The translations under genes were made by a program, and so were the position numbers. A DNA stretch of 64,000 nucleotides from Bacteroidales bacterium (GTDB lineage: Bacteria > Bacteroidota > Bacteroidia > Bacteroidales > UBA4417), in contig JBBSDG010000001.1 of NCBI GenBank assembly GCA_038249635.1, forward strand, positions 2,037 to 66,036. Reading direction: 5' to 3'. Below the pieces are notes generated by a model. The model ran no database searches. It worked only from the letters and a program-made list of their open reading frames with translations, and was not told the origin of the DNA. Positions 22,122-45,475 of this stretch are shown here, piece by piece. The number at the start of each line of letters is the position of its first letter. Position 1 is the stretch's first letter.

Positions 22122-22155
22122 TTTAAAATCAAACTAAAATTCTTTAAAATTGGAC
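22122..22155. promoter_or_regulatory. Conserved intergenic motif, copy 3 (TTTAAAATCAAACTAAAATTCTTTAAAATTGGAC)
   Basis: It shares TT.AAAAT and the core CTAAAAT(T)CTTTAAAATT with copies 1 and 2. Ungapped identity to copy 1 is 23 of 34, and higher with a 1-nt gap. It lies 154 nt upstream of the SusC start at 21968. Confidence 0.4.
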
Positions 22156-22503
22156 ATTCAGGTATTAAATAAAACTTAGTCCGATGCAAAGATCTTCGCT
22201 TACTGTCAGTTAGATGAATCATAGGATAGTCAATATCTAATTCTATTTTATAACTTTCGATAAAATGGAGGTCCCCCGATTACTTCATAGCAATCATTAA
22301 TATGGAAATCCGGTTAGAGAAGTTACGTAAAGGGACAGAGGCAAACATTTCAAATTTTAACGAGGGTTTGATAATTGGATTTGTACTTGGAAAGGTTGGG
22401 GAAGCTTTCAGTCAAAAATGAGGTGGTGGTTGCATACGGGCTTATAATTTCGTGGTGTTTAAGAACAATTATCGTAAGACTTGACTTGGTGAAATATAAT
22501 CTG

Positions 22504-26964: not shown

Positions 26965-27106
26965 AATTGATAATTTTTATTGTTTTACTAATTTCACTAA
27001 ACAAATATCATTTTAACGAATACCCAGTTGATAGCTAAATGTTTTTATCGGTTCCAACTGCGATTATTTCTGACAAAATCGGGTTTCATGACTTAGTTGC
27101 TTATTA

Positions 27107-28063: not shown

Positions 28064-28097
28064 GGTAGTTTTGTTTATAGGTTTTAATAATTATTGT

Positions 28098-29817
28098 TTA
28101 CCAGGAAAATTTTAGTAAGGACACTCCTTGTCTGGGAAGCTCCATTTCTACGATGGTTTTTCCATCCTTTGCATTCAACCATGTTGGCGATGAGTATAAT
28201 TGTAATTGGCCTGCGTTCTCCAATTCAACTATTTGATCGGGAGTAGGATTTTGAGGTGATCCCATCTTTTTCCAGACGGTGTATGAATTGCTAAATCTCT
28301 GATCAATACGATAATGGGTTAACAATACTTTACCATCATGCAATCCATTCATTACTATTTTAACCTTAGAATCGGCAACATCAAGGTTGTTATTATCATG
28401 ATAGTTCCATACCATTACTGTTGATGTATTTTTTTCTTTTGCAGCGATGGCGTTTATATCTGGATTCTCTCCCCTGACACTTTCATCCCGTACATTTAAA
28501 TAATTGTATGCTAAGTTATCTTGCTTAATTTCAACCCTTCTGCCCTGCATCATTCCATACATTCTAAATACATTCAGTACAGGTTTATCAACACCATTGG
28601 TTGACATATCGCGGAAACCCGCAAACCATGATTGATCTTCAAATTCAAATCCCCATGTGACCGCACCAAATAGATTTACACCAAAATGATCGGCTAATTG
28701 ATATTTTCGCGCAAATGAAGCCGCAGTATAACTGGAATACATCGTTCCATATTCGATAAGCATTTTGTGGATAATCTGCCTCAGAACATGCTGCACATCC
28801 TTCGGGATCCGACTCTCCGATTATAATAGGCAATTTTTTTAATGTCGGATACGATGCCACAATTTCAAAGCCCTTGCTAATATCTCTGAGTTGCTTTCCC
28901 ATGTCCATTTCCACCATTCCTTCGACCACTTTAGGATCTCCCTTAGCATGAAACGTAATAAAATCAAGTGGTGAACCTGTTTTACCGGTCACATAATTTT
29001 TACCACTCACTATATGGTCTAGGAAAGTACGAAGAAATACCGCGGCATCATCCCAACCCGGACCAGTTGTTTCAGGTCCGCCCATTCTCGCTGTGGGTAA
29101 TGCACGTTTCACAGCGTCGGCTGTATAATCGTAGAGTTTAATGTATTCTTGGGTTGTTCCCCGCCAATATCCAATATTAGGTTCATTCCATAGCTCCCAA
29201 TACCAGCTTTCCACTTCAGCTTTCCCATAACGATCAACCGAATGCCTCACCCATTGGTAAACCAATTCTGCCCACTTCTCATAGCTTTTGGGAGGATATG
29301 CCCAACCGGTGTAAATATCATCATATTTAGCCCCAGGAGTCCAATAATGTCTGTATGGATTTGGTTTAGAAGACAGCGCTTCGGGCATAAAGCCAATTTG
29401 GGCAATGGGTTTCATTCCTCTTTCTATAAAATTATCGAAAATCTTATCGATAATTTTCCAATCGTAAACAGGATTACCATTTTTATCTTCAGTATAAGCA
29501 TTGGTTGATCCCCATTTTAAGGCATATGTTCCCTCTCCTGTCACTAATAAACTATGAACTCTAACATATACCGGATCCGGACTTAAAGCCGATATTTCTG
29601 TAAGAAGTTTTTTACCGTCCTTCATATAAGTGTAATTGGGTTCATCGTAACCCCATCGAGCCCAGATCGGATCCATCGGACCAATTTCTTTATCAAAATT
29701 CACATTTATTGAAACAGGTTCAACTTTAGGTACATTCTGACCCTTAATAACATTTACGAATAACAGTTCCGGAAGAAATAAGAAAACTGCCAAAAAGAGT
29801 TTATTTTTTATCATCAT
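28098..29817 (-). pseudogene. GH39 family glycoside hydrolase, interrupted by a +1 frameshift
   Basis: ORFs 28645..29817 and 28098..28796 overlap in different frames. The N-terminal part carries the GH39-like motifs HSLLV, GFMPEAL and SWYWELWNEPNIGYW (acid/base), plus IIIGESDPEGCAAC (nucleophile region). The sequence CGAATATGGAACG at about 28745-28755 reads ...NAYRIWND in one frame. Removing one base restores ...NAYRNGTMYSSYTAASFARKY, which continues into the second ORF. Confidence 0.8.
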
Positions 29818-29867
29818 AATGTGTAATTTTTATTACTATTGAAAGAAAAATTCGAAAGTAATTGTCT

Positions 29868-31370
29868 TTAGTATTGTTTCTGATGCTTAAAATCCGTGTT
29901 CCGGTAGTTGCTGTTTTTCTTCAGCGGAATTTTCAGTCCATCGGTTTTTTCCATCCAATCATTCAATTCAAGCAAATGCTTTTTAATAACCGGTTGTAAT
30001 TCTGGCTTATCTATCAGGTTCTGAATTTCATTTGGATCTTTTTGGATGTCGTAAAATTCGTTGCGATCCCAAATTCCCTGATAACGGATGTACTTGTACT
30101 GATCGGTGCGGATGCCAAACATGGTGGGAGTCATCGGGAATTCCCACTCCCAGAAGTACTCGTAAAAAATACGGTCGCGCCAGTTGGTTTCATCGCCTTT
30201 TTGTAATTGAACAATGGAATATCCGGGCATATAATCCGGCTTTTTCAACCCAGCCATTTCCAAACAGGTTGGAGCAATATCGATATTTTGCACCATTTTT
30301 TCAATCACCTTACCACCTTTAAAAAGTTCAGGACAACGAACCAGAAAAGGCACTTTGACCGATTCTTCGTAGAAATGCCGTTTGTCGATCAGGCCATGTT
30401 CGCCCCAGCTGAATCCATTGTCGCCCATGTAAATGACCAGTGTTGATTCATCGAGACCTTCCTGTTTCAGGTAATCCATCACCGACCCGATGCTTTCGTC
30501 AACTCCCAGCAAAGTTTCGCAATAGTCCTGCACCATTGTGTTCATATCCGAATTGCCGTTGTACATGTAATCCACACCATGCCAGCTTACTCGTTGATTG
30601 GCGACCCATTCCGGCCATTTCAGGTCGCGGTAGGCACCGGTTTTGGTCTGGTCATAAGTTACAGGAAGCGTATATTTTTTGTTTTTGTATTTTCCTTTAT
30701 GACGCTTTGCCGGTTGAAACCCTGCATGAACTGCTTTGTGCGAGAGATAAACAAAAAACGGTTTGGTTTTGTCGCGCTCTTTCAGCCATTTCAGGGTGTG
30801 TTCGGTCAGCAAATCGGTAATGTAAGTTGAGTCTTTGTAAGCGATACGATTTCCATTGATATTCAGGCTTGGATTGTAATAGTCACCTTGTCCGCGAAAG
30901 CTTTCCCAATGCGTGAAACCCGGACGTGGAGAATCGCTGTCGTCGCCCATGTGCCATTTTCCGAAGAATGCAGTTTGGTAACCGGCTCCCTGCAAATACT
31001 GCGGAAAGTACGTCAGGTTTCCCGGATCGGGCGCCTGATTATCGACAATGGTATGGGTATGCGAATACATTCCGGTAAGAATGGAAGCCCGACTTGGTGA
31101 GCAAAGCGAAGTGGTGACAAATGCATTTTTGAACCAGGCCCCTTCGGCTGCCAGCTTATCCATATTTGGTGTTTCTAGCCACGGAACTTTTCCGGTAAAG
31201 CCCATAAAATCGTACCGGTGATCGTCGGTGAGAATGAAAATCACATTTCTGGGTTTAATGTTTTTATCTCTTTCAAGGGGCTTGAAATTTGCGGGAGATT
31301 TCTGTGCATAAACTCCCATTGCAGAGCTCAATATAGAAGCTCCCATCAATAATCTGTGTTTATTCAACAT
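29868..31370 (-). CDS. S1 family sulfatase (Cys-type, formylglycine-dependent)
   Basis: 500 aa with a signal peptide. Motifs: FILTDDHRYD, and LCSPSRASILTG (the C-x-P-x-R signature). The C-terminal half is conserved with the other two paralogs. Confidence 0.93.
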   Translation of the reverse strand: MLNKHRLLMGASILSSAMGVYAQKSPANFKPLERDKNIKPRNVIFILTDDHRYDFMGFTGKVPWLETPNMDKLAAEGAWFKNAFVTTSLCSPSRASILTGMYSHTHTIVDNQAPDPGNLTYFPQYLQGAGYQTAFFGKWHMGDDSDSPRPGFTHWESFRGQGDYYNPSLNINGNRIAYKDSTYITDLLTEHTLKWLKERDKTKPFFVYLSHKAVHAGFQPAKRHKGKYKNKKYTLPVTYDQTKTGAYRDLKWPEWVANQRVSWHGVDYMYNGNSDMNTMVQDYCETLLGVDESIGSVMDYLKQEGLDESTLVIYMGDNGFSWGEHGLIDKRHFYEESVKVPFLVRCPELFKGGKVIEKMVQNIDIAPTCLEMAGLKKPDYMPGYSIVQLQKGDETNWRDRIFYEYFWEWEFPMTPTMFGIRTDQYKYIRYQGIWDRNEFYDIQKDPNEIQNLIDKPELQPVIKKHLLELNDWMEKTDGLKIPLKKNSNYRNTDFKHQKQY

Positions 31371-31425
31371 GGTTGTATTTATTTGTTTGATTTATTTGTT
31401 TGATTTAATTATTTAATCTTTCACT

Positions 31426-33840
31426 TTATTTAATGACAATTAACTTCTTGGTAGTCGAATTTACCTGAACAAAATAAACCCCGTTGCCTCCAATCTGACT
31501 TACAGGAATTGTAATTACTGAAGCTGAAACAGCATTGGAATAAACAAGTGATCCCCATGAATTATAAATCGAAATCCTCGAATTTTCCATGTTCAATTTA
31601 ATCGTAATTAAATCGGTTGCCGGATTGGGGAATATTTCAAAATCATTATTGATGGACAATTGTTCGACTGCCGTTTTAACGGCCACTATAAGTTCCTGCG
31701 AAACATCTGTAGCTGCATTATAATTAATATTTCCAGCTTGTTTCGCTGTAATTGTTGTCGAGCCTGCACCTTTGATTTGAACCTGACCATCTACAATTGC
31801 AGCGACTGCCGGATTAGAACTGGTGTAAGTAGGAGCCAAACCTGAACTGGCAGATGCTCCGGGCAAAAAATCAGGATCACCATTTTTTTTAGACTGAAAT
31901 GGAGGAAATACAATCGTCTGAGTCCCTTTCGCCACGGTGAGCGACCGACTAATCTGACCAGCTGGATTGTATGTTGGATCGCCATCCTGAAAAGCAATGA
32001 TGTCGCAGATTCCGGCACCGATAATCTGAATAGTATTGTTCGATATTTTTGCCACTTTTGGATTAGAACTTGCAAACTGAACCGGGAGCCCTGAACTTGC
32101 TGATGCGGATATACTAAAATCGTTATCACCAACAGCTTTTGAAGGAATGGGATCATATTGAATCGTTTGTGTTTGCAAATTTTTATCGTTTTCGATCACC
32201 ACAAATACTGTTGAATATTTGGGTAAGCTTAATTTAATATCACCACTCCAACTTGTACCAAATGGTTTCAGGGTTGCATAATCTGCCGGACCACCACCTT
32301 CAAGGGTTGTTGTTTTTCCATTCACATATACTTTCCGCGAGAAATCACCATTGTCAGTTCCTCCGGTAAGCAGATAGTAATAATACCGGTCACCTGCTTT
32401 GAAATTATTCATCTTCAGACTGACCACTTTTTCTGAAGTTCCCTTATTTATCAGCACAATACCGCTTTGTCCGGATGAAAATTTAGAGGCATAGCTCACC
32501 ACGTCAGTACTTCCCGTAACAGTTGATTGGATCAACTTATCACCAAAAAATTTCTGGAAATAATATAAATAGAAAAAAGGTGCCCTTGGTGTGTATCTGG
32601 CAATTCCGGGTTCACCATCGGCGAATAGCCCATGACTGTCACCGTCACTCCAACCGTTCATAAAATCCCACCGGTTGCCCTGTCCAAACTGATCTTTGAT
32701 CAATTCCCCCAGAACGAGTGCTCCGTGTATTCCATTAATGTAGGATACCTGTTGCATTTTACCCTTTGGATTTATATTGTACTCGGTTAAAGCAACCGGC
32801 ATCGGATCCTTACCGGCAAATGTTTTCAATTGTTGATTTAGCATCGTTTTGATCCGGGTTACCTCAGTAATAGCAGTATTCAGTATTTTGATTGGATCGG
32901 ACTCTGTACCATTGGAAAAATAATAATGAGGAATAAGAAAATCGGCATGACCGGCCACCTGCGACATCACTCCTTTGTTCCAAAATTCGACGGCATCAAA
33001 TTTCGGGCCCTCTGTATTATACACAACAACCCCTATTTTGATATCGTTGCCTACTTCTTTGGCAGCCTTTCGCATTTCGTCGAGAAAAACTTTGCAATGT
33101 TTACCGTATAAATCGCCAGAAATAGTAAAAGGTTGTCCATCTTTATTGAGGGATTGATCAATGGTATAACCAGTTTCCCATTTCCCGTAATTTTCGTTTC
33201 CTATTTCCCAATATTTAGTCCTGCCATTGTCGTAACGTACCCAGTCGGCAGCGTATCTGGCCGCAGTAAGTACAGGGTCATCACTTGTACTATAACGTGC
33301 ATAAGCATAATTCACACAGATAATTCCAGTTGAATTTGTTTTGCTCAGAAAGCTATAATACGAATCTAAGGACATAGTCCAACTGTTTTTATTGGCACCA
33401 TACAACTGAACGTTATATTCAAATGTTGGTGGCAGATCCAATGGACATGTGGCCTGACTGGTAGCATCCCAGAAATAATCGTTCGACATGTTTCCTCCCG
33501 GCCAGCGAATCACCTGGGGCGAAAGGTTAATCACCTCATTGACCAAAGAAGCATTTACCTCCAGCTTTCCGACCCATACCGCTGCATTGTGTCCGTAAAC
33601 ATTACTGCTTACTTTCGAAACGATTGTTCCCGCATCAACGGTAATGTTAACCGTAGATGGCAATGTGACCTGTTCAAGATTTTCATAATCTTTTATTTCA
33701 ATATTTTTGGGCACCCAATTCTCCAGAAATATGCCCTGCGAGCTGATTTGAGCTGAAACAAATGAAGGTAAAAGACCAAAATAAAAGAACAGGATAAGTA
33801 GATTCAAACTTTTCTTAATGCTGATGATTTTAAAATTCAT
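31426..33840 (-). CDS. Secreted clan GH-A glycoside hydrolase with two Ig-like (Big_2-type) repeats and a T9SS C-terminal sorting domain
   Basis: 804 aa with a signal peptide. The catalytic region has IRWPGGNMSNDYFWD and YWEIGNENYGKWE. Two roughly 80-aa internal repeats follow (...ASASSGLPVQFASSNPKVAKI...GAGICDIIA and ...ASASSGLAPTYTSSNPAVAAI...GAGSTTITA). The tail FEIFPNPATDLITIKL...ISIYNSWGSLVY...GVYFVQVNSTTKKLIVIK is typical of Por/T9SS CTDs. Confidence 0.8.
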   Translation of the reverse strand: MNFKIISIKKSLNLLILFFYFGLLPSFVSAQISSQGIFLENWVPKNIEIKDYENLEQVTLPSTVNITVDAGTIVSKVSSNVYGHNAAVWVGKLEVNASLVNEVINLSPQVIRWPGGNMSNDYFWDATSQATCPLDLPPTFEYNVQLYGANKNSWTMSLDSYYSFLSKTNSTGIICVNYAYARYSTSDDPVLTAARYAADWVRYDNGRTKYWEIGNENYGKWETGYTIDQSLNKDGQPFTISGDLYGKHCKVFLDEMRKAAKEVGNDIKIGVVVYNTEGPKFDAVEFWNKGVMSQVAGHADFLIPHYYFSNGTESDPIKILNTAITEVTRIKTMLNQQLKTFAGKDPMPVALTEYNINPKGKMQQVSYINGIHGALVLGELIKDQFGQGNRWDFMNGWSDGDSHGLFADGEPGIARYTPRAPFFYLYYFQKFFGDKLIQSTVTGSTDVVSYASKFSSGQSGIVLINKGTSEKVVSLKMNNFKAGDRYYYYLLTGGTDNGDFSRKVYVNGKTTTLEGGGPADYATLKPFGTSWSGDIKLSLPKYSTVFVVIENDKNLQTQTIQYDPIPSKAVGDNDFSISASASSGLPVQFASSNPKVAKISNNTIQIIGAGICDIIAFQDGDPTYNPAGQISRSLTVAKGTQTIVFPPFQSKKNGDPDFLPGASASSGLAPTYTSSNPAVAAIVDGQVQIKGAGSTTITAKQAGNINYNAATDVSQELIVAVKTAVEQLSINNDFEIFPNPATDLITIKLNMENSRISIYNSWGSLVYSNAVSASVITIPVSQIGGNGVYFVQVNSTTKKLIVIK

Positions 33841-33875
33841 AGTTTTTGATTCTGTTTGTTTAAATTCGATATCAG

Positions 33876-34925
33876 CTATTTGAGCGTCCGGCTGCCAACC
33901 CCTTCTGTGGTAATTTTCACTGGTTTGATCAAGCCATTTTCGTCGAAATACATACGATCGATGCAGGTTTCGCGGTGGTTACCATCAGTTTCTGTTAATG
34001 GGCGGCGATGATATACAATGTACCAGTCGTCTGTTTTGGGAATATTAATTACCGAATGGTGGCCTGCACCACGTGCAATATTTTCATCCTGCTGAAGCAC
34101 TTTAGCTATACGTTTAAACGGACCAAAGGGCGAATCGGCTATGGCATAAGCCACCGAATAATCGGGGCCGGTCCAGTTGCCTTCGCTCCACATCAGGTAA
34201 TATTTGTTATTTCTGATAAACATGAACGAACCTTCGACATAGTTTTCAGGAGTAATTTCCTTGTAAACCGAACCATCGGGATAAGGAATCAGGCCGGTAA
34301 AATCGTCTTTGATCTGAACAATATTGCAATGCCGCCAACCTCCATATATCAGGTAATATTTCCCATCCTGATCGTGAAAGATAAACTGATCGATGGGTTG
34401 CGCACCGTTGGCAATTTCATTGATGAGCGGTTTACCCAGATAATCCTTGAACGGACCGCCTGGTTTTTTGGAAACAGCGATGCCAATTCCCCCCATCTGT
34501 TCGCTGGTTTTAATGTCGTTGGCACCGAAAAACAAATAATATTTCTTGTCTTTTTTGATGATCGATGGCGCCCACAGCGAATAAGCCGCCCACTTTACAT
34601 CTTTTACATCAAGCACATGCGAATGCTTTTCCCAATTTACAAGGTCTTTGGATGAAAAGGCATTGAAGAAAGTCTGCAAAAGAAATGGTGCCCAAGGCTT
34701 GTTTTTCTTCCGTTCGTTTTTCTGCCAGTCGGTAAGCACTGCCGACGAATCGGGGACTTCGGCATGAGCCGAATAAGTCGGATAAATCCAATATGCATCG
34801 CCAAAAATGATGGCTTCCGGATCGGCATACCAGCCATTGAAAATGGGGTTTCCGCTTGTTTTTGGTTGCGAAAAAACTGAATAGCTCATCACTACGACTA
34901 AAGTCAGTAAATATATTTTTCTCAT
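33876..34925 (-). CDS. GH43 family glycoside hydrolase (arabinofuranosidase/xylosidase-like)
   Basis: 349 aa with a signal peptide. It starts NPIFNGWYADPEAIIFGDAYWIYPT (catalytic Asp context) and contains WAPSIIKKDKKYYLFF and a five-bladed-propeller-like repeat pattern. Confidence 0.85.
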   Translation of the reverse strand: MRKIYLLTLVVVMSYSVFSQPKTSGNPIFNGWYADPEAIIFGDAYWIYPTYSAHAEVPDSSAVLTDWQKNERKKNKPWAPFLLQTFFNAFSSKDLVNWEKHSHVLDVKDVKWAAYSLWAPSIIKKDKKYYLFFGANDIKTSEQMGGIGIAVSKKPGGPFKDYLGKPLINEIANGAQPIDQFIFHDQDGKYYLIYGGWRHCNIVQIKDDFTGLIPYPDGSVYKEITPENYVEGSFMFIRNNKYYLMWSEGNWTGPDYSVAYAIADSPFGPFKRIAKVLQQDENIARGAGHHSVINIPKTDDWYIVYHRRPLTETDGNHRETCIDRMYFDENGLIKPVKITTEGVGSRTLK

Positions 34926-34984
34926 CTGAATAAAATATTATTACTTAGTCCATTGTTTTATAAATTGCGAAAACGCGTTTAGAG

Positions 34985-36643
34985 TTAAGGTTTAATTTTC
35001 TTGTATTCGGCCCAATCAAACATTGCTTTGGAAGGCGATTTTGCATACGAATACAATCCGAAATAGGCACCAATATACCCTCCGGCCACTCTAGTGCTCA
35101 AATGTCGACCATCCAGTACGCCTCCAACAAACTGCCATTTCTTTTCATCCAAACTGTAAGCACACTGAAACTTATCGGCAAGGATTTGCATCTTCAGGAA
35201 AACCTTTTGTCCAGCCTTATAGGAAGGTAGTTCGGTTTTGAAAAACTCTTGTTTGTCCGACGAAATGATTATAAAATGGTTGTTTTCCTGTAGCTCAACA
35301 ACCATTTTGTAAAAGAATTTTTCGTTTTGGAAAACCACAATACCGGCTTCCATCTCATTTCTTCTTCCGTTTTCTTTTTCTGTCTGCATGCTTACTGAAG
35401 TTGAAAATTCAGCATTTGCATGTTGTAACCGGCGACCAATAAAAGATGGGTTCCCAACCTCGTCGATGCTTATCGGGCGGGCATTGATTGTTAATGTTCC
35501 ATTGTCAATGCTGTACCACTTTTCTTTTGGTGTGCGGATGAAGTTCCATTCCAGTTTTAGTTCAGGTTCGTTAAAATCATCCTTCCAATTGGCCGAATAT
35601 TCGCGAAAAGTTACTTTTCCTTCATCGGCTTTCAGGGGCAACGATACCTGGTATGGAACAGCTTTGCCTTTTTCGAGAATAATGGGCCATTCACCACTCC
35701 AGTCAACATTTTGGATAAATGTTTGCCGCCCTGTATTGAAAAATTCACCTTCATAAGGCTGACAACCCAGAAAGACAGCAACCCAGTCACCATTGGGGGT
35801 TTGAACAAAATCAGCATGACCGGTACAAGTAACAGGGTCAACCCGATCCGCGGGCAAGTCTCGTTGTGTCAGGATCGGATTGTCTTTGAATACTTCATAA
35901 GGCCCCCAGATATTTCTGCTGCTAAAAATTACCTGTGAATGTTCAAGCCCGGTGCCACCTTCGGCGCAGAGCAGGTAATAATATCCGTTCTTATTGAAAA
36001 TATGCGGACCTTCGATCCAGATTGGTTTTTTTGTAATGTCAGTCCCGCCATTTACTATCTCTACGCGCTTTCCAATTGGTTTTTTAGCCGCTAAATCAAA
36101 TTTCTGTAACCAAAGCGAACGATGCCCATTGTACAATGGCTTACCGTCGGCTACCGGACCATTGTTCACCAGATAAGCTGTTCCATCCAGATCAAAAAAG
36201 AAGGATGGATCAATCCCGTCAACTTCTTTTAGCCAATTTGGTTCAGACCATGGCCCTGCTGGATTTTTAGCTGTAACATAAAAGTTTCCACCCTTTCCAC
36301 CCATCAACGTTGTAATCATGTAAAAAACTCCTTCATGATAGCGGATAGAAGGTGCATATAGCCCTGCAGAAATCCATTCATCGGTAAGGTTCAGTTGTGA
36401 GGGCCGATCCAATACATGTCCAATTTGCTTCCAATGCGTAAGATCTGTACTATGGAAGATTGGAATTCCGGGAAAAAACGAAAACGAAGAATTGACCAGA
36501 TAATAATCGTTACCAACCCTGCAAATACTTGGATCGGGATAAAAACCGGGTAGTATCGGGTTCATCACTTGGGCATTAACCGATGTAAAAACTGTACTCA
36601 TAGCTACAATTAAGATTATGAGAAAATTGTGGATTAAGTTCAT
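34985..36643 (-). CDS. GH43 beta-xylosidase / alpha-L-arabinofuranosidase with C-terminal beta-sandwich domain
   Basis: 552 aa. Contains NPILPGFYPDPSICRVGNDYYLVNSSFSFFPGIPIFHSTDLTHWKQIGHVLDRPSQL and EGPHIF. It is a paralog of 40792..42498. Confidence 0.9.
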   Translation of the reverse strand: MNLIHNFLIILIVAMSTVFTSVNAQVMNPILPGFYPDPSICRVGNDYYLVNSSFSFFPGIPIFHSTDLTHWKQIGHVLDRPSQLNLTDEWISAGLYAPSIRYHEGVFYMITTLMGGKGGNFYVTAKNPAGPWSEPNWLKEVDGIDPSFFFDLDGTAYLVNNGPVADGKPLYNGHRSLWLQKFDLAAKKPIGKRVEIVNGGTDITKKPIWIEGPHIFNKNGYYYLLCAEGGTGLEHSQVIFSSRNIWGPYEVFKDNPILTQRDLPADRVDPVTCTGHADFVQTPNGDWVAVFLGCQPYEGEFFNTGRQTFIQNVDWSGEWPIILEKGKAVPYQVSLPLKADEGKVTFREYSANWKDDFNEPELKLEWNFIRTPKEKWYSIDNGTLTINARPISIDEVGNPSFIGRRLQHANAEFSTSVSMQTEKENGRRNEMEAGIVVFQNEKFFYKMVVELQENNHFIIISSDKQEFFKTELPSYKAGQKVFLKMQILADKFQCAYSLDEKKWQFVGGVLDGRHLSTRVAGGYIGAYFGLYSYAKSPSKAMFDWAEYKKIKP

Positions 36644-36650
36644 GATATTT

Positions 36651-37868
36651 TTAGTGAATTAGTTGTTTTAAATATTCTTCCTGAATGGCCAGAATCCTCA
36701 TCCGTTTTTCGCCTGAAAACTGTTCCAGATATGTTCCGCCAACCGTAAAGCAGCAAAAACCTCCAGAAGAAATTCCCCAGGAAATGGCTTCATGTAAGCT
36801 GAAATTTCCTTTGGTGGTATTTTTTTGCTGCATGGCCAGCGAAGTAATGATTCCTCCGGCAAAATTATCGCCACATCCGGTGGTGTCACCGCGCATTTCA
36901 GGACTGCCTCTAAGTACATCGCCAATCATTCGGGAAACCGGAAATTTCAGGATTCCTGTCTTTTGAAAAAGCCCGCCACCCGACCAGGCCAAAAGTTCGT
37001 TTGCACCATTGGTTATTATGAAAGAAGAAACTTTTGTATTCGAAAAATAAGAGGCTGCCTCATCTAGCGTTTTCGTGCCACTGATCTTTAACGCTTCCTC
37101 GCAATCCATAATCAGAACATCAATCAATTGGTAATCCTGAACAGAATCCAGCAAAGGCCAAGGTTTATTGGGATTATTTTTCTGATTTCTGAAATCGAAA
37201 ACCGTATTTACCACCGTAATGCAGTCTTTCTGTTTGGAATGTTTTAACAACCGGCTTATACCATCGTGTACATGTGGAACAAGGGCTGTTCCTCCATAAC
37301 ATTGAATATCGGCATCGAAAAATTCACCGTCAATCTGTTTCGGAGTGAAATCCCAGGCGGCTCCAATGTTATTTACAAAGGTTCGTTCGCCATGTCCGTG
37401 GTCGTAATCGGGATCAGAAAATACATCGGTTGTCGGCGTTGCCCTTTCAGCCGATGACTTGTAATACTTAATATTGAGCGGTGTTTGCTTTACAATCCTG
37501 AAAATCTGATTGGCGTAATCATCGTTTCCGGCCATACCGAAAAACTTCACTTCAAAATCATTTTGGTCGAGCATTTGTGCTGCATGAATAAGCGCCACCA
37601 ACGAAGGTCCACCCACATTCATCGCATCCGGCGGACGATTTCCAACGATATCACACAAAATCTCCCGATAGCTATTTCCGGAAAATTTCTCCAGCTCTTC
37701 GGTAAAAACCAGTTTACCCGGACTCAATCCTCCGTCACCGATGTGCTTGGAAGTATAATTTTCAAATTCAGGACTTGAAAACGATACCCGGTTATAAATC
37801 AAATCGGCTATCGCACAACCAGCACCTGCTATGGTAATTTTTTCAGTATTCATTAAATGTATCTTCAA
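36651..37868 (-). CDS. PfkB family carbohydrate kinase (unusually long, about 400 aa)
   Basis: The N-terminus ITIAGAGCAIADLIYN is the PfkB motif-1 region. The C-terminal DTTGCGDNFAGGIITSL corresponds to PfkB signature 2, DTxGAGDxF. Confidence 0.8.
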   Translation of the reverse strand: MKIHLMNTEKITIAGAGCAIADLIYNRVSFSSPEFENYTSKHIGDGGLSPGKLVFTEELEKFSGNSYREILCDIVGNRPPDAMNVGGPSLVALIHAAQMLDQNDFEVKFFGMAGNDDYANQIFRIVKQTPLNIKYYKSSAERATPTTDVFSDPDYDHGHGERTFVNNIGAAWDFTPKQIDGEFFDADIQCYGGTALVPHVHDGISRLLKHSKQKDCITVVNTVFDFRNQKNNPNKPWPLLDSVQDYQLIDVLIMDCEEALKISGTKTLDEAASYFSNTKVSSFIITNGANELLAWSGGGLFQKTGILKFPVSRMIGDVLRGSPEMRGDTTGCGDNFAGGIITSLAMQQKNTTKGNFSLHEAISWGISSGGFCCFTVGGTYLEQFSGEKRMRILAIQEEYLKQLIH

Positions 37869-37914
37869 CTCCCGTTTTTCAATCGTAAATCGTAAATAAT
37901 AAAATCGTAAATTT

Positions 37915-39327
37915 CTACCGGTGTCGGTACAAATCCCATTTTAAATAGGTCGAAACAGCTTCTTCAATCACATCGGTAACATTTCCGCGAACCATTGCCA
38001 CATGATGTTCGAAACCGTTATTACACAAGTGTTTCATCAGCGGTTGCAGGTTGTTAATCTTGCAAATGGCTGTCCCACCATCGAGCTCAACGGCATCGTT
38101 GGTGTATTCGCCTTCGCCCAGGTAGGTTTTAATCCGGCCTTTGGTATCGTCGGTCGAAATGCGGAAGAAGGTAAATGGCCCATCGTTCACCTTGCCTTTA
38201 ATGGCGCCAAAACATTTGTCTTGGCCCACAATGGTTCCCATAATCTGAAGGTTCGAGATTTCGATTGGAGCCTGCACAAAACTTTTCGGATAATTGCCGC
38301 AATGCCAGCTGATGCATTTGTTGCGGTCGTCGCCAAAGTTATTGTTCCAATCGAGAATAGCCGAAGCTTTTCCTGAAGCCAGAGTGAGCGCGTACATCGA
38401 AACGGCGCCACAAACGTCCACTTCACAGGCACTTGGCAACAACTTGTCGCCCAGCATACTCATACTCAAACAGGCGGCACAGCCATAACTTTCCTGGATG
38501 GATGTCCAGCACTGAAAAGCAGCGGCATCAATCTCATTGTCGGTTATCCATTTTTCGCACGACAAACCGAATTTGGCCTGTTTACGAATGTTCTCTTTGG
38601 CAATACTTTCAGGAATGCGGCCATACGCGTGTATTTCGTCGAGTTTGCGTTTCAGCTCTGGCGCATCATTACCGATTTTTTCGGCTGCGAACAAGATCTC
38701 CGAAAGATCTACAGGAACTACCGTAATGCCTGTTTTCTGAAGCAACTTCTCGCTGAACCGTACCGTTTGAAAAGCGGCAGGACGCGCGCCAATTGCTCCA
38801 ATACGGGCATCCGTCAATCCGTTAACAACCCTGCAGGTTGCTGCAAACTTGTGCACATCGGCTGCAAACTCCGGACTTGAAATTTTACAAGTGTGTGTTG
38901 TTGTAAGTGTAAACGGAATATCGTGTTGATAAAGGTTATTACAAACCGAAAGTTTCCCGCAAAACGAGTCACGGCGTTCGGCAATGGTACCCTTTTCGAT
39001 CTTATCGTCGCTGGCCTGAACCAGAATTGGAACATTAAGTTTCGACCATTCTACCGCGTTCACGATCCCCAGCTCATCACCAAAATTGGGCAATGAAATG
39101 ATAATTCCATTAATGCGGTGCCGGTTGGTGCTGAACAATTCAGCCACTTTACGTGCATCCTGAATGCTTTCCACCACTCCTGTTGGAGTCGCTTCGTTGG
39201 GAAGGACAATATAATCGTAGCCCAGTTTTTCCATCAATTCAACGAGTTCTTTTTTGCCATTTACAGCCAGTGAGCTGTTAAAGAACCCGCGGGTTCCGAC
39301 GATTAGGCCAAATGTTATTTTTTTCAT
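37915..39327 (-). CDS. L-fucose isomerase-like (FucI/AraA superfamily) sugar isomerase, substrate unknown
   Basis: 470 aa and cytoplasmic. The N-terminus MKKITFGLIVGTRGFFN... and the overall length and layout resemble the short L-fucose isomerase family proteins. This call rests on general resemblance only. Confidence 0.5.
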   Translation of the reverse strand: MKKITFGLIVGTRGFFNSSLAVNGKKELVELMEKLGYDYIVLPNEATPTGVVESIQDARKVAELFSTNRHRINGIIISLPNFGDELGIVNAVEWSKLNVPILVQASDDKIEKGTIAERRDSFCGKLSVCNNLYQHDIPFTLTTTHTCKISSPEFAADVHKFAATCRVVNGLTDARIGAIGARPAAFQTVRFSEKLLQKTGITVVPVDLSEILFAAEKIGNDAPELKRKLDEIHAYGRIPESIAKENIRKQAKFGLSCEKWITDNEIDAAAFQCWTSIQESYGCAACLSMSMLGDKLLPSACEVDVCGAVSMYALTLASGKASAILDWNNNFGDDRNKCISWHCGNYPKSFVQAPIEISNLQIMGTIVGQDKCFGAIKGKVNDGPFTFFRISTDDTKGRIKTYLGEGEYTNDAVELDGGTAICKINNLQPLMKHLCNNGFEHHVAMVRGNVTDVIEEAVSTYLKWDLYRHR

Positions 39328-39344
39328 AATATCTTAGATTCCAC

Positions 39345-40742
39345 TTAGTGTTTCCACAATTTATTCATTTCTTCCAATGTTTTACCCTTCGTTTCGGGAA
39401 CCATTTTCCAAACAAAAATCATTGAAAGGACCGACATTACCCCATAAAGCAGGTAGGTAAATGTAATGCTGAATGCTTCCAGCGAAGGAAAAGTTGCCGA
39501 AACAATAAAGTTTGAAATCCATTGAGCCGCCACGGCAATTGCCACTGCTTTGCCCCGTATGGTATTGGGGAATATTTCAGAAATCAATACCCAGCAAATA
39601 GGCCCCCACGACATCATAAATGCTGCAGAATAGATAATGATAAATATCAGCGTACTCACTCCAATGATTTGAAAATGCGCTAAAAGGCCAATGGCAAACA
39701 TGGCTATTGACATAGCCACAGAGCCAATGATTAACAAAGGTTTACGGCCAAGTTTATCTACGGTAAGTATTGCTACCAATGTGAAAACTATATTCACAAA
39801 TCCCAGCACTACAGTTTGATACATGGCTGCATCGTTACCAACTCCCAGTCCCTTAAAAATGGTTGGGGCATAATAAAGTACAACGTTAATGCCTACTGCT
39901 TGCTGGAAAAACGAAAGTAATATGCCTATTGCCAAAACTTTCCAGCCATAAGCAAACACTTTCTCAACCGTTTCGTGTGCTGAATCGTTTATGTCTTTTA
40001 AAATTTCGGCAGCTTTGGTTGCTCCATTTATTTTGGTCAGAATGTGCAGTGCTTTTTCACTTTTATGCGACATGGCCAGGTAACGGGGAGTTTCTGGAAC
40101 AAAAAACAACATAAGTCCAAAAAAAGCTGCAACAATTGACTCGGAGGCAAACATATATCTCCAGCCGGTTGCATTTATCCATTCGTTGCCCTTACCATTG
40201 ACAATAAAGTAATTCACAAAATAAACAACCAACATACCAAACACAATGGCGAACTGATTCCACGAAACCAATTTTCCCCGGATATCAGCAGGAGAAATTT
40301 CTGCAATATACATAGGGCAAATAGCTGATGCCAAACCAACTCCAACTCCACCAATAATCCGATAGACATTGAAACTAACCAATAAATTTGAAATGTGAGT
40401 AGTATCGTCGAAAAAAATCATTTCAGGAAACCCCGAACCTATTGCAGAGATAAAGAAAAGTACCGAGGCAATAATCAACGAACGCCTCCGCCCAAAATAT
40501 GAGGCAAACAATCCAGACAAAACGCTGCCCAGAATACAACCAATAAGTGCACTCGAAACGGTGGCTCCATGATAAAAAGTAGCTAAATTGCCATATGTAG
40601 CTTCATCCAAATGAAAGAAAACTTTTAACGGATCAACTGCTCCCGAAATAACTGCCGTATCGTAGCCGAATAGCAGTCCGCCGAGCGTAGCTACCAATGT
40701 AATACCGAAAATATAGATTTTATTTCCCTGTTGATTATTCAT
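39345..40742 (-). CDS. MFS sugar porter (XylE/AraE-like sugar:H+ symporter)
   Basis: 465 aa with 12 predicted TM-like segments. Motifs: GLLFGYDTAVISGA, GRRRSLI, VPETPRYL, PETKGKTLEEM. Confidence 0.9.
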   Translation of the reverse strand: MNNQQGNKIYIFGITLVATLGGLLFGYDTAVISGAVDPLKVFFHLDEATYGNLATFYHGATVSSALIGCILGSVLSGLFASYFGRRRSLIIASVLFFISAIGSGFPEMIFFDDTTHISNLLVSFNVYRIIGGVGVGLASAICPMYIAEISPADIRGKLVSWNQFAIVFGMLVVYFVNYFIVNGKGNEWINATGWRYMFASESIVAAFFGLMLFFVPETPRYLAMSHKSEKALHILTKINGATKAAEILKDINDSAHETVEKVFAYGWKVLAIGILLSFFQQAVGINVVLYYAPTIFKGLGVGNDAAMYQTVVLGFVNIVFTLVAILTVDKLGRKPLLIIGSVAMSIAMFAIGLLAHFQIIGVSTLIFIIIYSAAFMMSWGPICWVLISEIFPNTIRGKAVAIAVAAQWISNFIVSATFPSLEAFSITFTYLLYGVMSVLSMIFVWKMVPETKGKTLEEMNKLWKH

Positions 40743-40791
40743 TTTTAATCACTTGATAAAGAATTAAGTTTGATTCATTTGCCGGTACAAT

Positions 40792-42498
40792 TTATTCTTC
40801 CCGGTAATAGAAATAGTCATAATAAACTGGATTTTGACTAGGTTTTCCATTTGATGAGGCATACATTCCAATCAATGGTCCGGTAAAGCGACCTCCATAA
40901 ACGAAGGCTGTTTCAGACAAGTCGATATCCTGCTTTAAATCTGTCCATTTTTTACCGTTGCCTGAATAGCTAAAGCTATGAACCAAGCCTTTTACAGTCA
41001 TTTTCAAATGGATATTTCCATCTTTCACAGTTGTCTGTGCCAATAAGGAGTCAGCTGTTGCTTTTCCTGAACGTAAAGCTACTTTTAGAACCAATTTTTT
41101 ATTTTCGCGTGTCACGGTGTATTTGAGATAACAATTCCGATCACGCTCAAGCAATATTCCAGCCTCTTCATTATCAGCAAGCGGATTAAATTTCATTTTT
41201 GTTACCACACTAAAATTGGCATGTTCCTGACGTTTACATACAAACGAAGGATTCACCTTTTCGCTGGTTGATTCGGGACGGAGTTGTATGCGTAAATAAC
41301 CCTTCTTTTCGGATAACGACCACCACTCGGTGCGTGGCGTACGCAAGAAATTCCATTGATAATGAAGCTTTTCGGCATTAAAATCTTCTAAAAGATAGCT
41401 TTTGTCAACCACCATTTCAGGTAGATTGGGTTTCTCCTGAACCAATTCACTTCGCCCGACTTTTCCTTTCGGATTAACAATCGGCCATTCGCCCGACCAA
41501 TCGACCATACTTATGAATGTTTCACGACCCAAAATAATTCTTGGATTGTTCTTTTTTTCATCCTGTATCGGTCGCTTTCCCAGATAAACAATGGCCCAAT
41601 CACCATTTTGAATTTGAATTAAATCGGCATGACCGGTAGCTGTAATAGGATAATTCGTTGGTAAATCGCGGTGCGTAATTATCGGATTATTGGGGTTCAT
41701 TTCCCAGGGACCAAAAATGTTCTTGCTCCTGAAAATAACAAATGCATGGTTCTGACCTGTGCCGCCAATAGAGCAAGTAAAATAGTATGTACCATCCTTT
41801 CTGTAAATATGAGGCCCTTCCATGGCATTGAGGTAATTCACATTATCTGCTCTAAGTGGGTTTACGGTACTGTGAAAATCTGCTGAATTGCAGTTGGTAT
41901 GCATTTCACCCACTAATTCCCATTTTTCCAAATCAATTTCCTGTGTCCAAATAGTATTGTGGCCACTCCAAACCTTGTCTTCTGGTTTAGGTTTAAATGT
42001 TCCCGACATATAAACTTTTCCATCATCATCAAAAAGTAAATCGGGATCAATACCGGGGGCTCCCTTTATCCAATGCGGTTCGGACCAGGGTCCTGCCGGA
42101 TTGGTGGCTGTGCAAATAAAATCGCCTCCTCCTTTACCAATCAGCGTGGTAACCATGTAAAAAATACCTTTATAGTACCGAATACAAGGTGCATAAATGC
42201 CCCCCGAACTCTCACACTCATCCAGATTCAACTGCGATGGACGATCGAGCACATGGCCAATCATTTCCCAATTTACCAGATCGGTACTGTGATATACCGG
42301 AACTCCCGGAAAGTACTCAAAGCTTGAAGTCACCAAATAGTAATCTTTACCAACTTTGCAAATACTTGGATCGGGATTAAAGCCAGTAATTACCGGGTTG
42401 GTAAAGGTGTTTTTTATTATTTCCTCAGCATTTCCCTTTTGACCAAATACAAGAGTCAGAATAATCATTAGCCCTGGTAAAGTTTGTTTGTAGTTCAT
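40792..42498 (-). CDS. GH43 beta-xylosidase / alpha-L-arabinofuranosidase with C-terminal beta-sandwich domain
   Basis: 568 aa with a signal peptide. Contains NPVITGFNPDPSICKVGKDYYLVTSSFEYFPGVPVYHSTDLVNWEMIGHVLDRPSQL and EGPHIY. Confidence 0.9.
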   Translation of the reverse strand: MNYKQTLPGLMIILTLVFGQKGNAEEIIKNTFTNPVITGFNPDPSICKVGKDYYLVTSSFEYFPGVPVYHSTDLVNWEMIGHVLDRPSQLNLDECESSGGIYAPCIRYYKGIFYMVTTLIGKGGGDFICTATNPAGPWSEPHWIKGAPGIDPDLLFDDDGKVYMSGTFKPKPEDKVWSGHNTIWTQEIDLEKWELVGEMHTNCNSADFHSTVNPLRADNVNYLNAMEGPHIYRKDGTYYFTCSIGGTGQNHAFVIFRSKNIFGPWEMNPNNPIITHRDLPTNYPITATGHADLIQIQNGDWAIVYLGKRPIQDEKKNNPRIILGRETFISMVDWSGEWPIVNPKGKVGRSELVQEKPNLPEMVVDKSYLLEDFNAEKLHYQWNFLRTPRTEWWSLSEKKGYLRIQLRPESTSEKVNPSFVCKRQEHANFSVVTKMKFNPLADNEEAGILLERDRNCYLKYTVTRENKKLVLKVALRSGKATADSLLAQTTVKDGNIHLKMTVKGLVHSFSYSGNGKKWTDLKQDIDLSETAFVYGGRFTGPLIGMYASSNGKPSQNPVYYDYFYYREE

Positions 42499-42562
42499 AA
42501 ATAGTGAATTGGTTATAAATGTTTGTATTTTTATGAGAGTTTGTCGATTTTCATAAGTAATT

Positions 42563-43438
42563 TTAGTTAGAATAGAGATTAAAAAAACCTTCTGTGTCCT
42601 TTATTTCATTTAATCCTAAAATCCAACACACTTCGGAAAGGTCTGAAAAATCGAGTCCACCTGCAGAAATTGCTGGATTATTGTGACGCCCATCTTTTCC
42701 ATTATATTTGTTCGCTATATCAATCGCAAGCTGCCATATTTTGACAAGTTTGGGGTCTGATATTTTATCCTTCCAACCGGTATAATCAGGAGAACGAAAC
42801 CCAGGCGTTCCGTTTCCAACTGCATTACCATCAGGTATTTTACAATAATCCGTATTCTCCTTTACAAATTGAAGGTTCTTTGGTGATGTCATTTTTTCAT
42901 TCCAGGTGCTATGTTGAACCACATGAATGCGTTTAGACACATTTATTCCAGGAAAATCAGTGGCAAGGGCTTTTATAAGACCAGCGGTAAAATCTGATTG
43001 ACCACCCTCTGCAATCCAAATATCGCCCTGTTTTTTAAGAGTTCCTGTTACTATTTCTTTCACTTGCTTAACTGCAGATTCAAAATTTTCATGGGCATCT
43101 GACCAGTTGCCACTAAATGAAAGTTCTAATAAATCATTGGGAGGTACATATAATCCTTTCTGCATACCATAGGTACCGGCAACTACATGATAATTTACTT
43201 TTGAAAAAGCGGCATCAGACATTAAGGTAGCCAGGGCTGCAATAGAATGAATATCATCCACATCTGTTCTACAATCAAATTGTACTAACAAAAGGTCTTT
43301 TCCTATATTAAAGGCTCCTGCTTTTGAATTTCCTTCTAAATTATTGTTTCTAAAAGACATAAAAGCAGCTATTATTGCAAGAATTATCAATGCTTTGAAT
43401 TTCATATTACGTAGTTTTATATTGAGTATACTGTTCAA
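42563..43438 (-). CDS. Exported hypothetical protein with a nucleoside-hydrolase-like Asp cluster
   Basis: 291 aa. The likely real start is MKFKALIILAIIAAFMSF at 43405. QFDCRTDVDDIHSIAAL resembles the DxDxxxDDxxAL motif of inosine/uridine-preferring nucleoside hydrolase-like folds. This is a weak, motif-only call. Confidence 0.3.
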   Translation of the reverse strand: MNSILNIKLRNMKFKALIILAIIAAFMSFRNNNLEGNSKAGAFNIGKDLLLVQFDCRTDVDDIHSIAALATLMSDAAFSKVNYHVVAGTYGMQKGLYVPPNDLLELSFSGNWSDAHENFESAVKQVKEIVTGTLKKQGDIWIAEGGQSDFTAGLIKALATDFPGINVSKRIHVVQHSTWNEKMTSPKNLQFVKENTDYCKIPDGNAVGNGTPGFRSPDYTGWKDKISDPKLVKIWQLAIDIANKYNGKDGRHNNPAISAGGLDFSDLSEVCWILGLNEIKDTEGFFNLYSN

Positions 43439-43457
43439 CTTTTGCTTTTAATAGATT

Positions 43458-45134
43458 CTATTTTTTCAATTTCCCGAAATTTCCCGGGAGATTATTCAGA
43501 TACTTTATCAGTTCTGCTTTCAATTCTTCATGTTTGACTGCATATTCGGGCTTGCCGTAAAGGTTATTTTGTTCTGTCGGATCTGTTCTCAGATCATACA
43601 GTTGATTGGGTTCATAGTAATGTTTGTATCTGAGCGTTGATTGATACTCTGCATCGCCTCCGCCTGGAATCAGCATTACATGAGAAAAAGGCATGGCCGG
43701 ATCGGTAAAATGGTAGGCCATTTTATTTTCAATTCTCGCTTTATTCCATCTCTCCAATACTTTTTTTCGTTGAGAACCTGTCCATTTGTTGGCAAAATCC
43801 GGATAACGCAGGGCAATGTATTTCAGGCTGTCTTTCAAAACACCACGTGAGAATCCCATTTCGAAATACAGTGATTCATGAATTTTCTTTTTTTCGCCAT
43901 TCAGGATAGGCAGAAAACTTGTTCCATCGAAGCTCTTTATGGTTTCAGGCTTTCCTCCGGCCATTTCATATAAAGTGGGAGCAAAATCGATGTTCGAGAG
44001 CAAATCGGTATTGACCGTTCCACATTTGAATCCCCCCATTTTCCAGATGATGGAAGGACTCGAAACTCCGCCTTCATACACAGAACCTTTGGCCCACTGC
44101 CCGTGATCGGTAAAAAAAACAATGATCGTGTTGTCGTATTTCCCGGTTTCTTTCAGCTTTTTTATTAGCGCACCAACCGCATCGTCAATCCAAACTGTAT
44201 TGGCTTTTTCGTCGGGTATCTTTCCGGGTTTAGCCAGTCCGGCAGCAATTAGTCGTTGTGCAATGGTTTCTTTTTCAGGCATAACATTCGGAACTTTATC
44301 CAGATATCCTTCCGAAGTAATCCGCCGGTCGCCATTCCACGAATGTGCGGCATCCGAAGGACTATGAGGAACTGTTGTTGCAAAATAGAGGAAGAAAGGC
44401 TGATCGCTTTTCTGATCCATAAACTCCAATCCCTTAGCCGTAACCCAGTCGAGATTTTGGGATCTCAGTTTCTCCGGCCCCAGAAAGTGCGGATTGTCTT
44501 GGTAATTGGCTCCTGCGAAATCGAATCCGGTTCGTTTGATATTTTCTTCGATGATTCGCGCATTCTTCAGCAATTCCTGTTTTACCTGCGGATCTGCGGG
44601 GTCTGCATTTAAGGCGAGTTTCTTCCAACCGGGTGCTTCAATGGCATGATTTTTACCTACAAATCCGGTGCGATACCCCTGTTGCTGCAACAATGCGCCA
44701 ATTGTTTTGGTCCCGTTGGGGATATACGAATTCCATTGAACAACCGTTGCTCCTTCCATTTTCCGGGTATAAGAAACAAATTCATCACAAGTAGATCTGC
44801 TGGCATACTGCCCGGTTAGGCAAGAATAGCGGCTGGGTGTGCACACAGCCGAACTCACATGCTGCCCCATTAAAACCACACCTTCCTTGACCAATCGATC
44901 AATATTGGGTGTAAGGTTTTTTCCTTTCCCTTCAGGCAAACAATTAAACATGACGCGTTCCATGTCGTCGGAAATAAAGAAGATGATGTTTGGCTTCGCT
45001 GAAGGAACAAGCCCGGTTATTTTAGTTTCTTTTTTTTCGGAATGCAAGACGCTTCCGGCTGTGGTTAAACAAGGCACCAGCACAATCAATCCGGCCAGGT
45101 AATTTGTTTTTCCACCTATTGACAATGGTTTCAT
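43458..45134 (-). CDS. S1 family sulfatase (Cys-type), distinct subfamily from the three paralogs
   Basis: 558 aa. Motifs: IIFFISDDM, AVCTPSRYSCLTGQY (C-x-P-x-R) and FFTDHGQ. Confidence 0.9.
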   Translation of the reverse strand: MKPLSIGGKTNYLAGLIVLVPCLTTAGSVLHSEKKETKITGLVPSAKPNIIFFISDDMERVMFNCLPEGKGKNLTPNIDRLVKEGVVLMGQHVSSAVCTPSRYSCLTGQYASRSTCDEFVSYTRKMEGATVVQWNSYIPNGTKTIGALLQQQGYRTGFVGKNHAIEAPGWKKLALNADPADPQVKQELLKNARIIEENIKRTGFDFAGANYQDNPHFLGPEKLRSQNLDWVTAKGLEFMDQKSDQPFFLYFATTVPHSPSDAAHSWNGDRRITSEGYLDKVPNVMPEKETIAQRLIAAGLAKPGKIPDEKANTVWIDDAVGALIKKLKETGKYDNTIIVFFTDHGQWAKGSVYEGGVSSPSIIWKMGGFKCGTVNTDLLSNIDFAPTLYEMAGGKPETIKSFDGTSFLPILNGEKKKIHESLYFEMGFSRGVLKDSLKYIALRYPDFANKWTGSQRKKVLERWNKARIENKMAYHFTDPAMPFSHVMLIPGGGDAEYQSTLRYKHYYEPNQLYDLRTDPTEQNNLYGKPEYAVKHEELKAELIKYLNNLPGNFGKLKK

Positions 45135-45206
45135 TTATTAGTTTTAAGATTAAAGGAAAATGTAAGATTCACTCCTCAAAACTATGTGAAGGGTTCGTTT
45201 CAATCC

Positions 45207-45240
45207 TTGAAAAAAAAACTTAAAATCTTTAAAATTCAAC
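45207..45240. promoter_or_regulatory. Conserved intergenic motif, copy 2 (TTGAAAAAAAAACTTAAAATCTTTAAAATTCAAC)
   Basis: It matches copy 1 at 29 of 34 positions without gaps. It lies 73 nt upstream of the sulfatase start at 45134, which is the first gene of the 21-kb minus-strand array. Two further short blocks follow in the same order in both copy 1 and copy 2 regions: ATTTAA(A)GT and TTCTGGAAA. Confidence 0.5.
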
Positions 45241-45475
45241 CGAAAACATCTATTTAAAGTGGTTCTGGAAACTTTATGCGGCACTCCAAGAAATTTATCC
45301 CAATTTCTGAATTATTCATCCAGCAAATTATACCATTTCTTAATTAGTTTATCCGAACTTGTTGCTGTTGACTGTGGTTTCAACGTAACACCAAACATTA
45401 GGATAAAACCGCTTAAAAGAATATATCCTCTCTTAAAGTCGAAAATTGGCTGTTCCGAAATTCATTTCTAATTGA

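Follow-up and report, generated by a model that had tools for sequence, protein, structure and literature searches.

Three transcription units on the minus strand of the window, by which we mean the whole 64,000-nt stretch of Bacteroidales DNA analysed here, are each preceded by a copy of a 34-nt AT-rich motif, and the question raised by this locus is what the motif does and which factor reads it. A sequence-only reading had suggested that the AraC-type hybrid two-component system (HTCS) encoded next to one of the copies may use the motif as its operator. The comparison of related loci described below makes it probable that each copy combines an operator for the HTCS with a sigma-A promoter that depends on an activator, and this would unite the three units in one regulon.

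The three copies had been placed at positions 1101-1134 (copy 1), 45207-45240 (copy 2) and 22122-22155 (copy 3), and all three sequences were found there. The distances from copy to start codon were likewise confirmed as 65 nt (start at 1036), 73 nt (45134) and 154 nt (21968), respectively. Alignment of copies 1 and 2 gave the reported 29 identical positions out of 34, and both contain the same exact 19-mer; for a search with up to three mismatches, the expectation is 0.19. An independent repeat search of the window returned the same three copies as a family of three members (D7). The 31-nt pattern AATTTTAAAGANTTTNNNNNNNWTTTTMAAG, which extends over both cores of the element, has three matches in the window even with up to three mismatches, compared to 0.02 expected, and a chance origin of the three copies is excluded. 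A PWM derived from sites outside the window also recognizes just these three copies in the 64 kb, with nothing else above 8 bits. The source genome is absent from the species-genome collection, and the site count for this genome covers the 64-kb window.

The gene content ascribed to the target units, including the HTCS, the tandem SusC/SusD genes, the sulfatase/GH43 array and the GH at 1036, proved broadly right by domain searches. Copy 1 precedes a gene at 1..1036 (minus strand) that is present in full, as 728 aa, on the Logan contig L099; its product shows weak similarity to the GH51 arabinofuranosidase catalytic region and has a CBM32 (F5_F8_type_C) domain. Copy 3 precedes the unit 5449..21968 (minus strand), which encodes SusC, SusD, SusC, SusD, a DUF5627 protein, GH10, GH3 and a truncated sulfatase. 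This unit is a xylan-type PUL, and the DUF5627 protein is its surface glycan-binding protein. Copy 2 precedes a unit of about 15 genes and about 20 kb (24667..45134, minus strand), for which domain searches identified a sulfatase, an unknown protein, a GH43 with a GH43_C2 domain, an MFS sugar transporter, an isomerase and a PfkB kinase in the first part, followed by two more GH43, a T9SS-tailed protein, a sulfatase, a split GH39, ThuA and a 765-aa protein. This unit is presumed to be a single operon because its intergenic gaps do not exceed 143 nt. No terminator was found between block C of the sequence-only reading and copy 2, so that some read-through from upstream may occur. A third PUL, running from 62580 down to 45476, has its own genes for an ECF sigma factor (61990-62580), a FecR anti-sigma factor (60849-61907) and an STN-SusC (57266-60694); the PWM scan detected no copy of the element in this ECF sigma/FecR-controlled PUL.

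Several additional features were noted in and around these units. The region of about 1.5 kb upstream of the SusC promoter (22156-23660) has no ORF of at least 80 aa and no repeat elsewhere in the window. A degraded HTCS was considered for this gap and rejected, as tblastn found nothing; at the same place, the closest relative, L019, has an 800-nt gap and the HTCS. Two regions, 28098-29817 and 5449-7191, appear to hold degraded genes. In the first of them, the GH39 gene is split into the overlapping ORFs 28645-29817 and 28098-28796 and looks frameshifted or degraded, and in the second the sulfatase at 5449-6531 is without its N-terminal half and has a 660-nt gap before it, with the same truncated call in the independent contig L099. 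Altogether the window encodes four sulfatases (5449-6531, 29868-31370, 43458-45134 and 53960-55486) within PULs rich in GH10, GH43, GH3 and GH39, and three of these genes are close paralogues with about 79-80% DNA identity over 300 nt. Instead of plain plant xylan, these PULs may target a sulfated glycan rich in xylose. Between the motif-controlled blocks lie two tandem paralogous RidA/L-PSP genes (23659-24126 and 24220-24597; 77% DNA identity over 221 nt), the first of which has an N-terminal extension resembling a signal peptide.

When read on the minus strand, which is the direction of the downstream genes and the functional orientation of the element, each copy is a tandem direct repeat of half-sites of about 17 bp with the core WTTTYMAAGAT and a period of exactly 21 bp. 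The putative operator of copy 1 (1098..1135, minus strand) reads AGTTGAATTTTAAAGAT-TTTA-GTGTGTATTTTCAAGAT, with 17-bp half-sites at 1135..1119 and 1114..1098 that are 21 bp apart from start to start, and scores 43.9 bits with the PWM trained outside the window. Those of copy 2 (45204..45241, minus strand; half-sites 45241..45225 and 45220..45204, with the same 21-bp period) and copy 3 (22119..22156, minus strand; half-sites 22156..22140 and 22135..22119) score 33.9 and 13.0 bits, respectively. Copy 3, which stands in front of the SusC operon itself, is the weakest match because its central TTTT block is displaced by 1 nt. The half-site consensus is GAnAnnWTTTYMAAGAT, the 5' part of which is GTTGAA or GTGTGTA in the window genome. 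The string WTTTTMAAG occurs 12 times in the window, and pairs less than 45 bp apart are formed by the three copies alone, all of them at 21 bp. Over the 16 first-round sites, which have the consensus tatGatAGAAttTcAAAGATTTTaGagatTATTTTCAAGAt, self-similarity peaks at an offset of 21 (0.48 compared to a background of about 0.3), and most of the information lies in the two cores ending in AAGAT and in the central GATTTT.

The repeat is rigidly linked to a promoter element. [quoted passage not shown] With at most one mismatch, this Bacteroidota box begins exactly 21 nt past half-site 2 in each copy, the distance being counted from the G of the second half-site core. Two of the three boxes in the window carry one mismatch, namely TAATTTCG of copy 1 (1071..1078, minus strand; gene start at 1036) and CAGTTTTG of copy 3 (22092..22099, minus strand; SusC start at 21968), whereas TAGTTTTG of copy 2 (45177..45184, minus strand; sulfatase start at 45134) is a perfect match. 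The predicted SusC leader behind copy 3 is about 118 nt long, and the N-terminus of this SusC is conserved in L019. Among the 16 sites, the box (again with at most one mismatch) was found at exactly 21 nt in 14 and at 22 nt in one other; the 21-nt spacer and the flanks show no conservation across related sites. Numbered from the -7 box, half-site 2 covers about -48 to -32 and half-site 1 about -69 to -53. No -33 element (TTTG) was found at its expected place about 19 nt before the -7 box, where half-site 2 (...CAAGAT) stands instead. Since the -33 element is not universal among Bacteroidota (PMC7366714), its absence is weak evidence for activator dependence. All 25 sites collected in this work are intergenic, lie on the strand of the downstream gene and precede a SusC/CAZyme-type gene start by 64-371 nt; the genes behind them encode SusC, TonB-dependent receptors, GH39, GH5, sulfatases, CBM9 proteins and T9SS-tailed proteins.

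Other descriptions of the element were considered and rejected. The TTGAA...TTCAA inverted ends described earlier do occur in copies 1 and 2 but are missing from copy 3 and from every orthologous site, and the element is not a palindrome, as the inverted ends are not conserved. The two extra blocks that accompany copies 1 and 2, ATTTAA(A)GT and TTCTGGAAA (in transcribed orientation, ACTT(T)AAAT and TTTCCAGAA), are present as claimed. They do not belong to the element, however, as their spacing differs by 9 and 19 nt between these copies and none of them is found in related loci. A structured RNA was rejected because no Rfam family matched, the covariance models giving no match at the gathering score over the whole window; moreover, the motif should not be transcribed, since it lies upstream of the predicted -7 box. 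As for a mobile, MITE-like repeat, no conserved terminal inverted repeats were found and the element keeps a constant distance from the -7 box.

The proposed regulator is the HTCS encoded at 1253..5221 (plus strand, 1322 aa), the start of which lies 119 nt from copy 1. According to Pfam, its chain comprises a periplasmic Reg_prop/Y_Y_Y sensor, HisKA, HATPase, a receiver and an AraC-type HTH_18 domain (residues about 1215-1322); it also contains the C/SHIP latch motif, with SHIP at residue 1141. In a database search, the exact protein was found in the 67-kb source contig and in one 14-kb Logan contig, and nowhere else. The sequence-only reading had named this HTCS as the only plus-strand regulator nearby; it is not the only regulator in the window, which also encodes the ECF sigma/FecR pair (60849-62580) and an AraC-type ORF (63228-63701, plus strand). 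The latter is 157 aa long, its HTH_18 domain is cut off at the C-terminus, and it is located beside the ECF sigma, FecR and STN-SusC genes of the third PUL.

The association of the motif with the HTCS was examined by an HTCS-guided protein scan of metagenome contigs, which provided 13 orthologous loci (52-62% identity) and 67 paralogue loci (about 25-29%), the latter mostly from gut metagenomes. The DNA-binding domain is 66-75% identical to that of the window protein in eight orthologues, compared to 35-39% in paralogues. With up to four mismatches, the motif is present in all eight orthologue loci that contain DNA upstream of the HTCS; in each of these first-round loci the motif and the HTCS are on opposite strands, in divergent orientation, and three of the loci have a second site further along. 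A prospective set of six further orthologue loci was picked without first looking at their DNA, and five of the six have strong sites (39-59 bits). These amount to eight distinct sites, each with a -7 box (at most one mismatch) exactly 21 nt downstream. In L102, where the HTCS has 60% identity and is accompanied by tandem SusC/D genes like those of the window, a degenerate site of 9.4 bits consists of two half-site-like boxes 21 bp apart with the perfect -7 box TAATTTTG at 21 nt. Overall, the motif was found in 12 of the 13 independent loci (HTCS identity of 51-62%), and the thirteenth has a degenerate copy. The orthologue group itself is large: a protein database search gave 1,006 proteins with E <= 1e-100, with at least 120 at 50-62% identity among the matches listed, and the matches are labelled as Bacteroidales or Prolixibacteraceae MAGs.

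The gene behind the site is not the same in all lineages. For instance, it encodes SusC in L019, L020, L021, L101 and L105 and GH39 in L023, L024, L028, L100, L101 and L103, while GH5, CBM9 and T9SS-tailed proteins are encoded downstream in L026 and L100. Because the downstream genes vary between loci, the HTCS is the one constant neighbour of the motif. In L019, the SusC behind the site has 84% identity to the first SusC of the window, and the HTCS is directly divergent from it; the window, in which the HTCS stands at the other end of the PUL, therefore shows the same system in rearranged order.

Two further observations concern the orthologues. A conserved block, TTAAAATTGAC (HTCS strand), lies about 15-25 nt upstream of half-site 1, for example at 8507-8525 of L023. 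It was found in L020-L028, L100 and L105, only at the HTCS-nearest sites of the clade with 51-57% identity, and not in the window; it could be a -7-like box of the HTCS promoter, which would imply autoregulation, or a third half-site that is out of phase. In addition, a subgroup of HTCS orthologues of about 1600 aa (L026 9929-14725, L101 10001-14764 and P0007-P0024) has an extra receiver and HTH_18 module at the C-terminus, which results in tandem response-regulator outputs within one HTCS.

Scans beyond the orthologous sites define the specificity of this association. In the 265 kb of orthologue loci, a 45-nt PWM has 18 matches scoring 12 bits or more, whereas the 1.15 Mb around the 67 paralogous HTCS genes contain none that reaches 10 bits. 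These control loci are mostly from gut Bacteroides and have a higher GC content (0.46 compared to 0.39), which leaves some room for a lineage-specific factor other than the HTCS. The anatomy and spacing of the element are conserved, and it is associated exclusively with one HTCS orthologue group. The comparison (12 of 13 orthologue loci, none near paralogues) lends support to the earlier proposal that the motif is the operator to which the adjacent AraC-type HTCS would bind and, as part of the same reading, to the proposal that blocks A and B belong to one regulon. An exact-pattern scan of one genome per species in 185,579 species gave 18 matches, and a single genome, the Bacteroidota MAG bin129, has two of them. 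Each bin129 site precedes a gene for a SusC-like or TonB-dependent receptor and has TAGTTTTG 21 nt further downstream, and an HTCS was not found within the 8-kb loci fetched around them. The match in L008 falls inside a coding ORF; the remaining matches are single ones in unrelated phyla and for this reason are taken as chance.

Even when all of them are combined, explanations other than an HTCS operator appear unlikely. The one that survives best, although improbable in itself, retains a genuine operator but assigns it to another factor, either an unlinked hemicellulose/xylose regulator of this lineage or the AraC-type protein at 63228-63701, in which case the HTCS would act elsewhere or indirectly. 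The presence of a second AraC-type HTH ORF in the window, the origin of the negative-control loci from other taxa and the bin129 sites without an HTCS in the fetched loci would all fit this explanation. However, it is the HTCS orthologue alone that always accompanies the motif across 13 loci with differing targets, and direct repeats with a 21-bp period are what has been described for HTCS sites. The small AraC-type ORF, in turn, is apparently truncated, lies beside the ECF-sigma PUL and was not seen in related loci.

An extended core promoter, in which RNA polymerase would read an UP-like AT-rich element with no dedicated regulator, is very improbable. The motif is indeed AT-rich and directly upstream of a sigma-A -7 box at a rigid distance, but it marks three promoters in 64 kb and is found near one HTCS orthologue group only, while other PUL promoters in the window and in related loci are without it. 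Its conserved positions also form two sequence-specific 17-bp repeats containing G and C and not a generic A/T tract. Less probable still is a sigma-70-like promoter on the plus strand (TTGAAA-17-TAAAAT) that would serve the HTCS at copy 1 and produce antisense transcripts at copies 2 and 3. This idea draws on a 10/12 consensus match on the plus strand inside copy 2 and on the position of copy 1 at 119 nt upstream of the HTCS start. Yet the sigma-A of Bacteroidota works without -35/-10 hexamers (PMC7366714), orthologous sites do not keep the second hexamer (their consensus is TGAGAT), no plus-strand gene lies downstream of copies 2 and 3, and such matches are rarer in the window than in shuffled sequence (1 compared to a mean of 1.9). 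The least credible explanation, a non-functional remnant such as duplicated promoter DNA, a small repeat element or a chance similarity in AT-rich spacers, could appeal to the extra short upstream blocks that copies 1 and 2 have in common, but is effectively refuted by the phylogenetic footprint, in which the half-sites and the -7 box alone are conserved while spacers and flanks diverge and the HTCS is only 51-62% identical, as well as by the three pattern matches against 0.02 expected and the lack of conserved terminal inverted repeats and of any Rfam match.

If each copy is an operator of the HTCS, as we consider probable, an HTCS dimer would most likely bind both half-sites via its two AraC-type DNA-binding domains, the 21-bp period corresponding to two helical turns. 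The periplasmic sensor would bind an oligosaccharide, probably a xylan-derived one, and the phosphorylated receiver would then release the DNA-binding domains, which would occupy the tandem site (-69 to -32) and bring in RNA polymerase as class II activators do. A proximal half-site over the -33/-35 position is the classical geometry of class II activators of the AraC family. The predicted outcome is joint induction of the GH51-like/CBM32 gene, the tandem SusC/D xylan-type PUL and the sulfatase/GH43/GH39 operon of about 20 kb. Such a regulon would cover outer-membrane uptake, periplasmic and secreted hydrolases, sulfatases, an inner-membrane transporter and cytoplasmic catabolism. Regulation may also be negative, since the HTCS BT4124 of a comparable system represses at similar tandem sites (PMC13292587).

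A broader and rather doubtful proposal is that the element represents a portable operator-promoter cassette of about 75 bp set before non-homologous genes, together with a readable HTCS specificity code in which the 5' part of the half-site co-varies with the recognition helix. The unit of such a cassette would be half-site, 21 bp, half-site, 21 nt and -7 box, and its recipients across lineages would include SusC, GH39, GH5, sulfatase and T9SS-secreted protein genes. If this were true, the cassette would let one conserved HTCS DNA-binding domain recruit new operons, which in this genome would include cytoplasmic sugar catabolism and sulfatases located 40 kb from the regulator. Regarding the code, GTTGAA and GATAGAA would co-vary with SRTQLN/AYL and SLAQLH/AYQ, respectively. 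The helix variants VSRTQLN/AYLTGFS (window, L019 and L102; HTCS residues about 1250-1300) were observed together with GTTGAA or GTGTGTA at half-site positions 1-6, and VSLAQLH/AYQTGFS together with the half-site 5' parts GATAGAA or GAGATTA. This co-variation is only suggestive, because clade A contributes just three loci and the bin129 sites are mixed in type.

These results leave the general picture of PUL regulation as it was, and the element is of a kind already known, a solid but expected bacterial control element. The motif itself, the environmental regulator family and the rigid 21/21 architecture appear to have no earlier description in the literature searched. The DNA site is known for very few HTCS regulators, almost exclusively ones from gut Bacteroides. 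The present analysis contributes a well-supported predicted operator for a large uncharacterised HTCS group of environmental Bacteroidota with at least 120 protein clusters, and the PWM could serve for regulon annotation of this HTCS family in metagenomes. The predicted regulon would join an outer-membrane xylan-type PUL to sulfatases and cytoplasmic sugar catabolism, and the unusually rigid promoter geometry leads to clear predictions on transcription starts and class II-type activation.

Among known systems, the operators of E. coli AraC (I1-I2), RhaS and XylR are direct repeats rich in A and T, with about 21 bp from one repeat to the next, and the proximal repeat lies over the -35 element in class II activation. 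The operators of these AraC/XylS activators and the window element are alike in all three respects, namely AT-rich direct repeats, the period of about 21 bp and a promoter-proximal repeat over the -35 region. They differ in their context: the AraC/XylS activators are soluble one-component proteins that work with sigma-70 hexamers, whereas the domain proposed here forms the C-terminal end of a hybrid kinase anchored in the membrane, and the promoter belongs to the Bacteroidota TAnnTTTG type. The XylRA operator of Vibrio is of the same AT-rich direct-repeat type (PMC12125979).

Another comparison is provided by BT4124, for which DNase footprinting revealed tandem half-sites in the bt4114 and bt4108 promoters (PMC13292587). 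As proposed here, an AraC-type HTCS DNA-binding domain acts on tandem half-sites, and the C/SHIP latch is found in both proteins. BT4124, however, is a repressor with two separate sites per promoter, whereas the window promoters have one tandem site at about -69 to -32, and this single site suggests activation.

A third likeness is to the motifs predicted by comparative genomics for 16 HTCSs of B. thetaiotaomicron, which are direct repeats about 21 bp apart (PMC3878776). Operators such as HTCS_Rgu, HTCS_Man and HTCS_Hep (RegPrecise; Ravcheev et al. 2013, PMC3878776) match the window element in this spacing, in having been found by comparative genomics and in their location upstream of susC/CAZyme operons in their own PUL, sometimes with distal members. 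In contrast, the window HTCS belongs to another orthologue group than the gut Bacteroides HTCSs retrieved, with about 26% identity and a different half-site sequence, and the hosts of the window-type element are environmental Bacteroidota. For the window-type element, the present analysis documents a fixed distance of 21 nt to the -7 box. Finally, an inner-membrane transporter, an isomerase and a kinase seem to belong to the window regulon, a feature of only two of the 16 HTCS regulons in PMC3878776.
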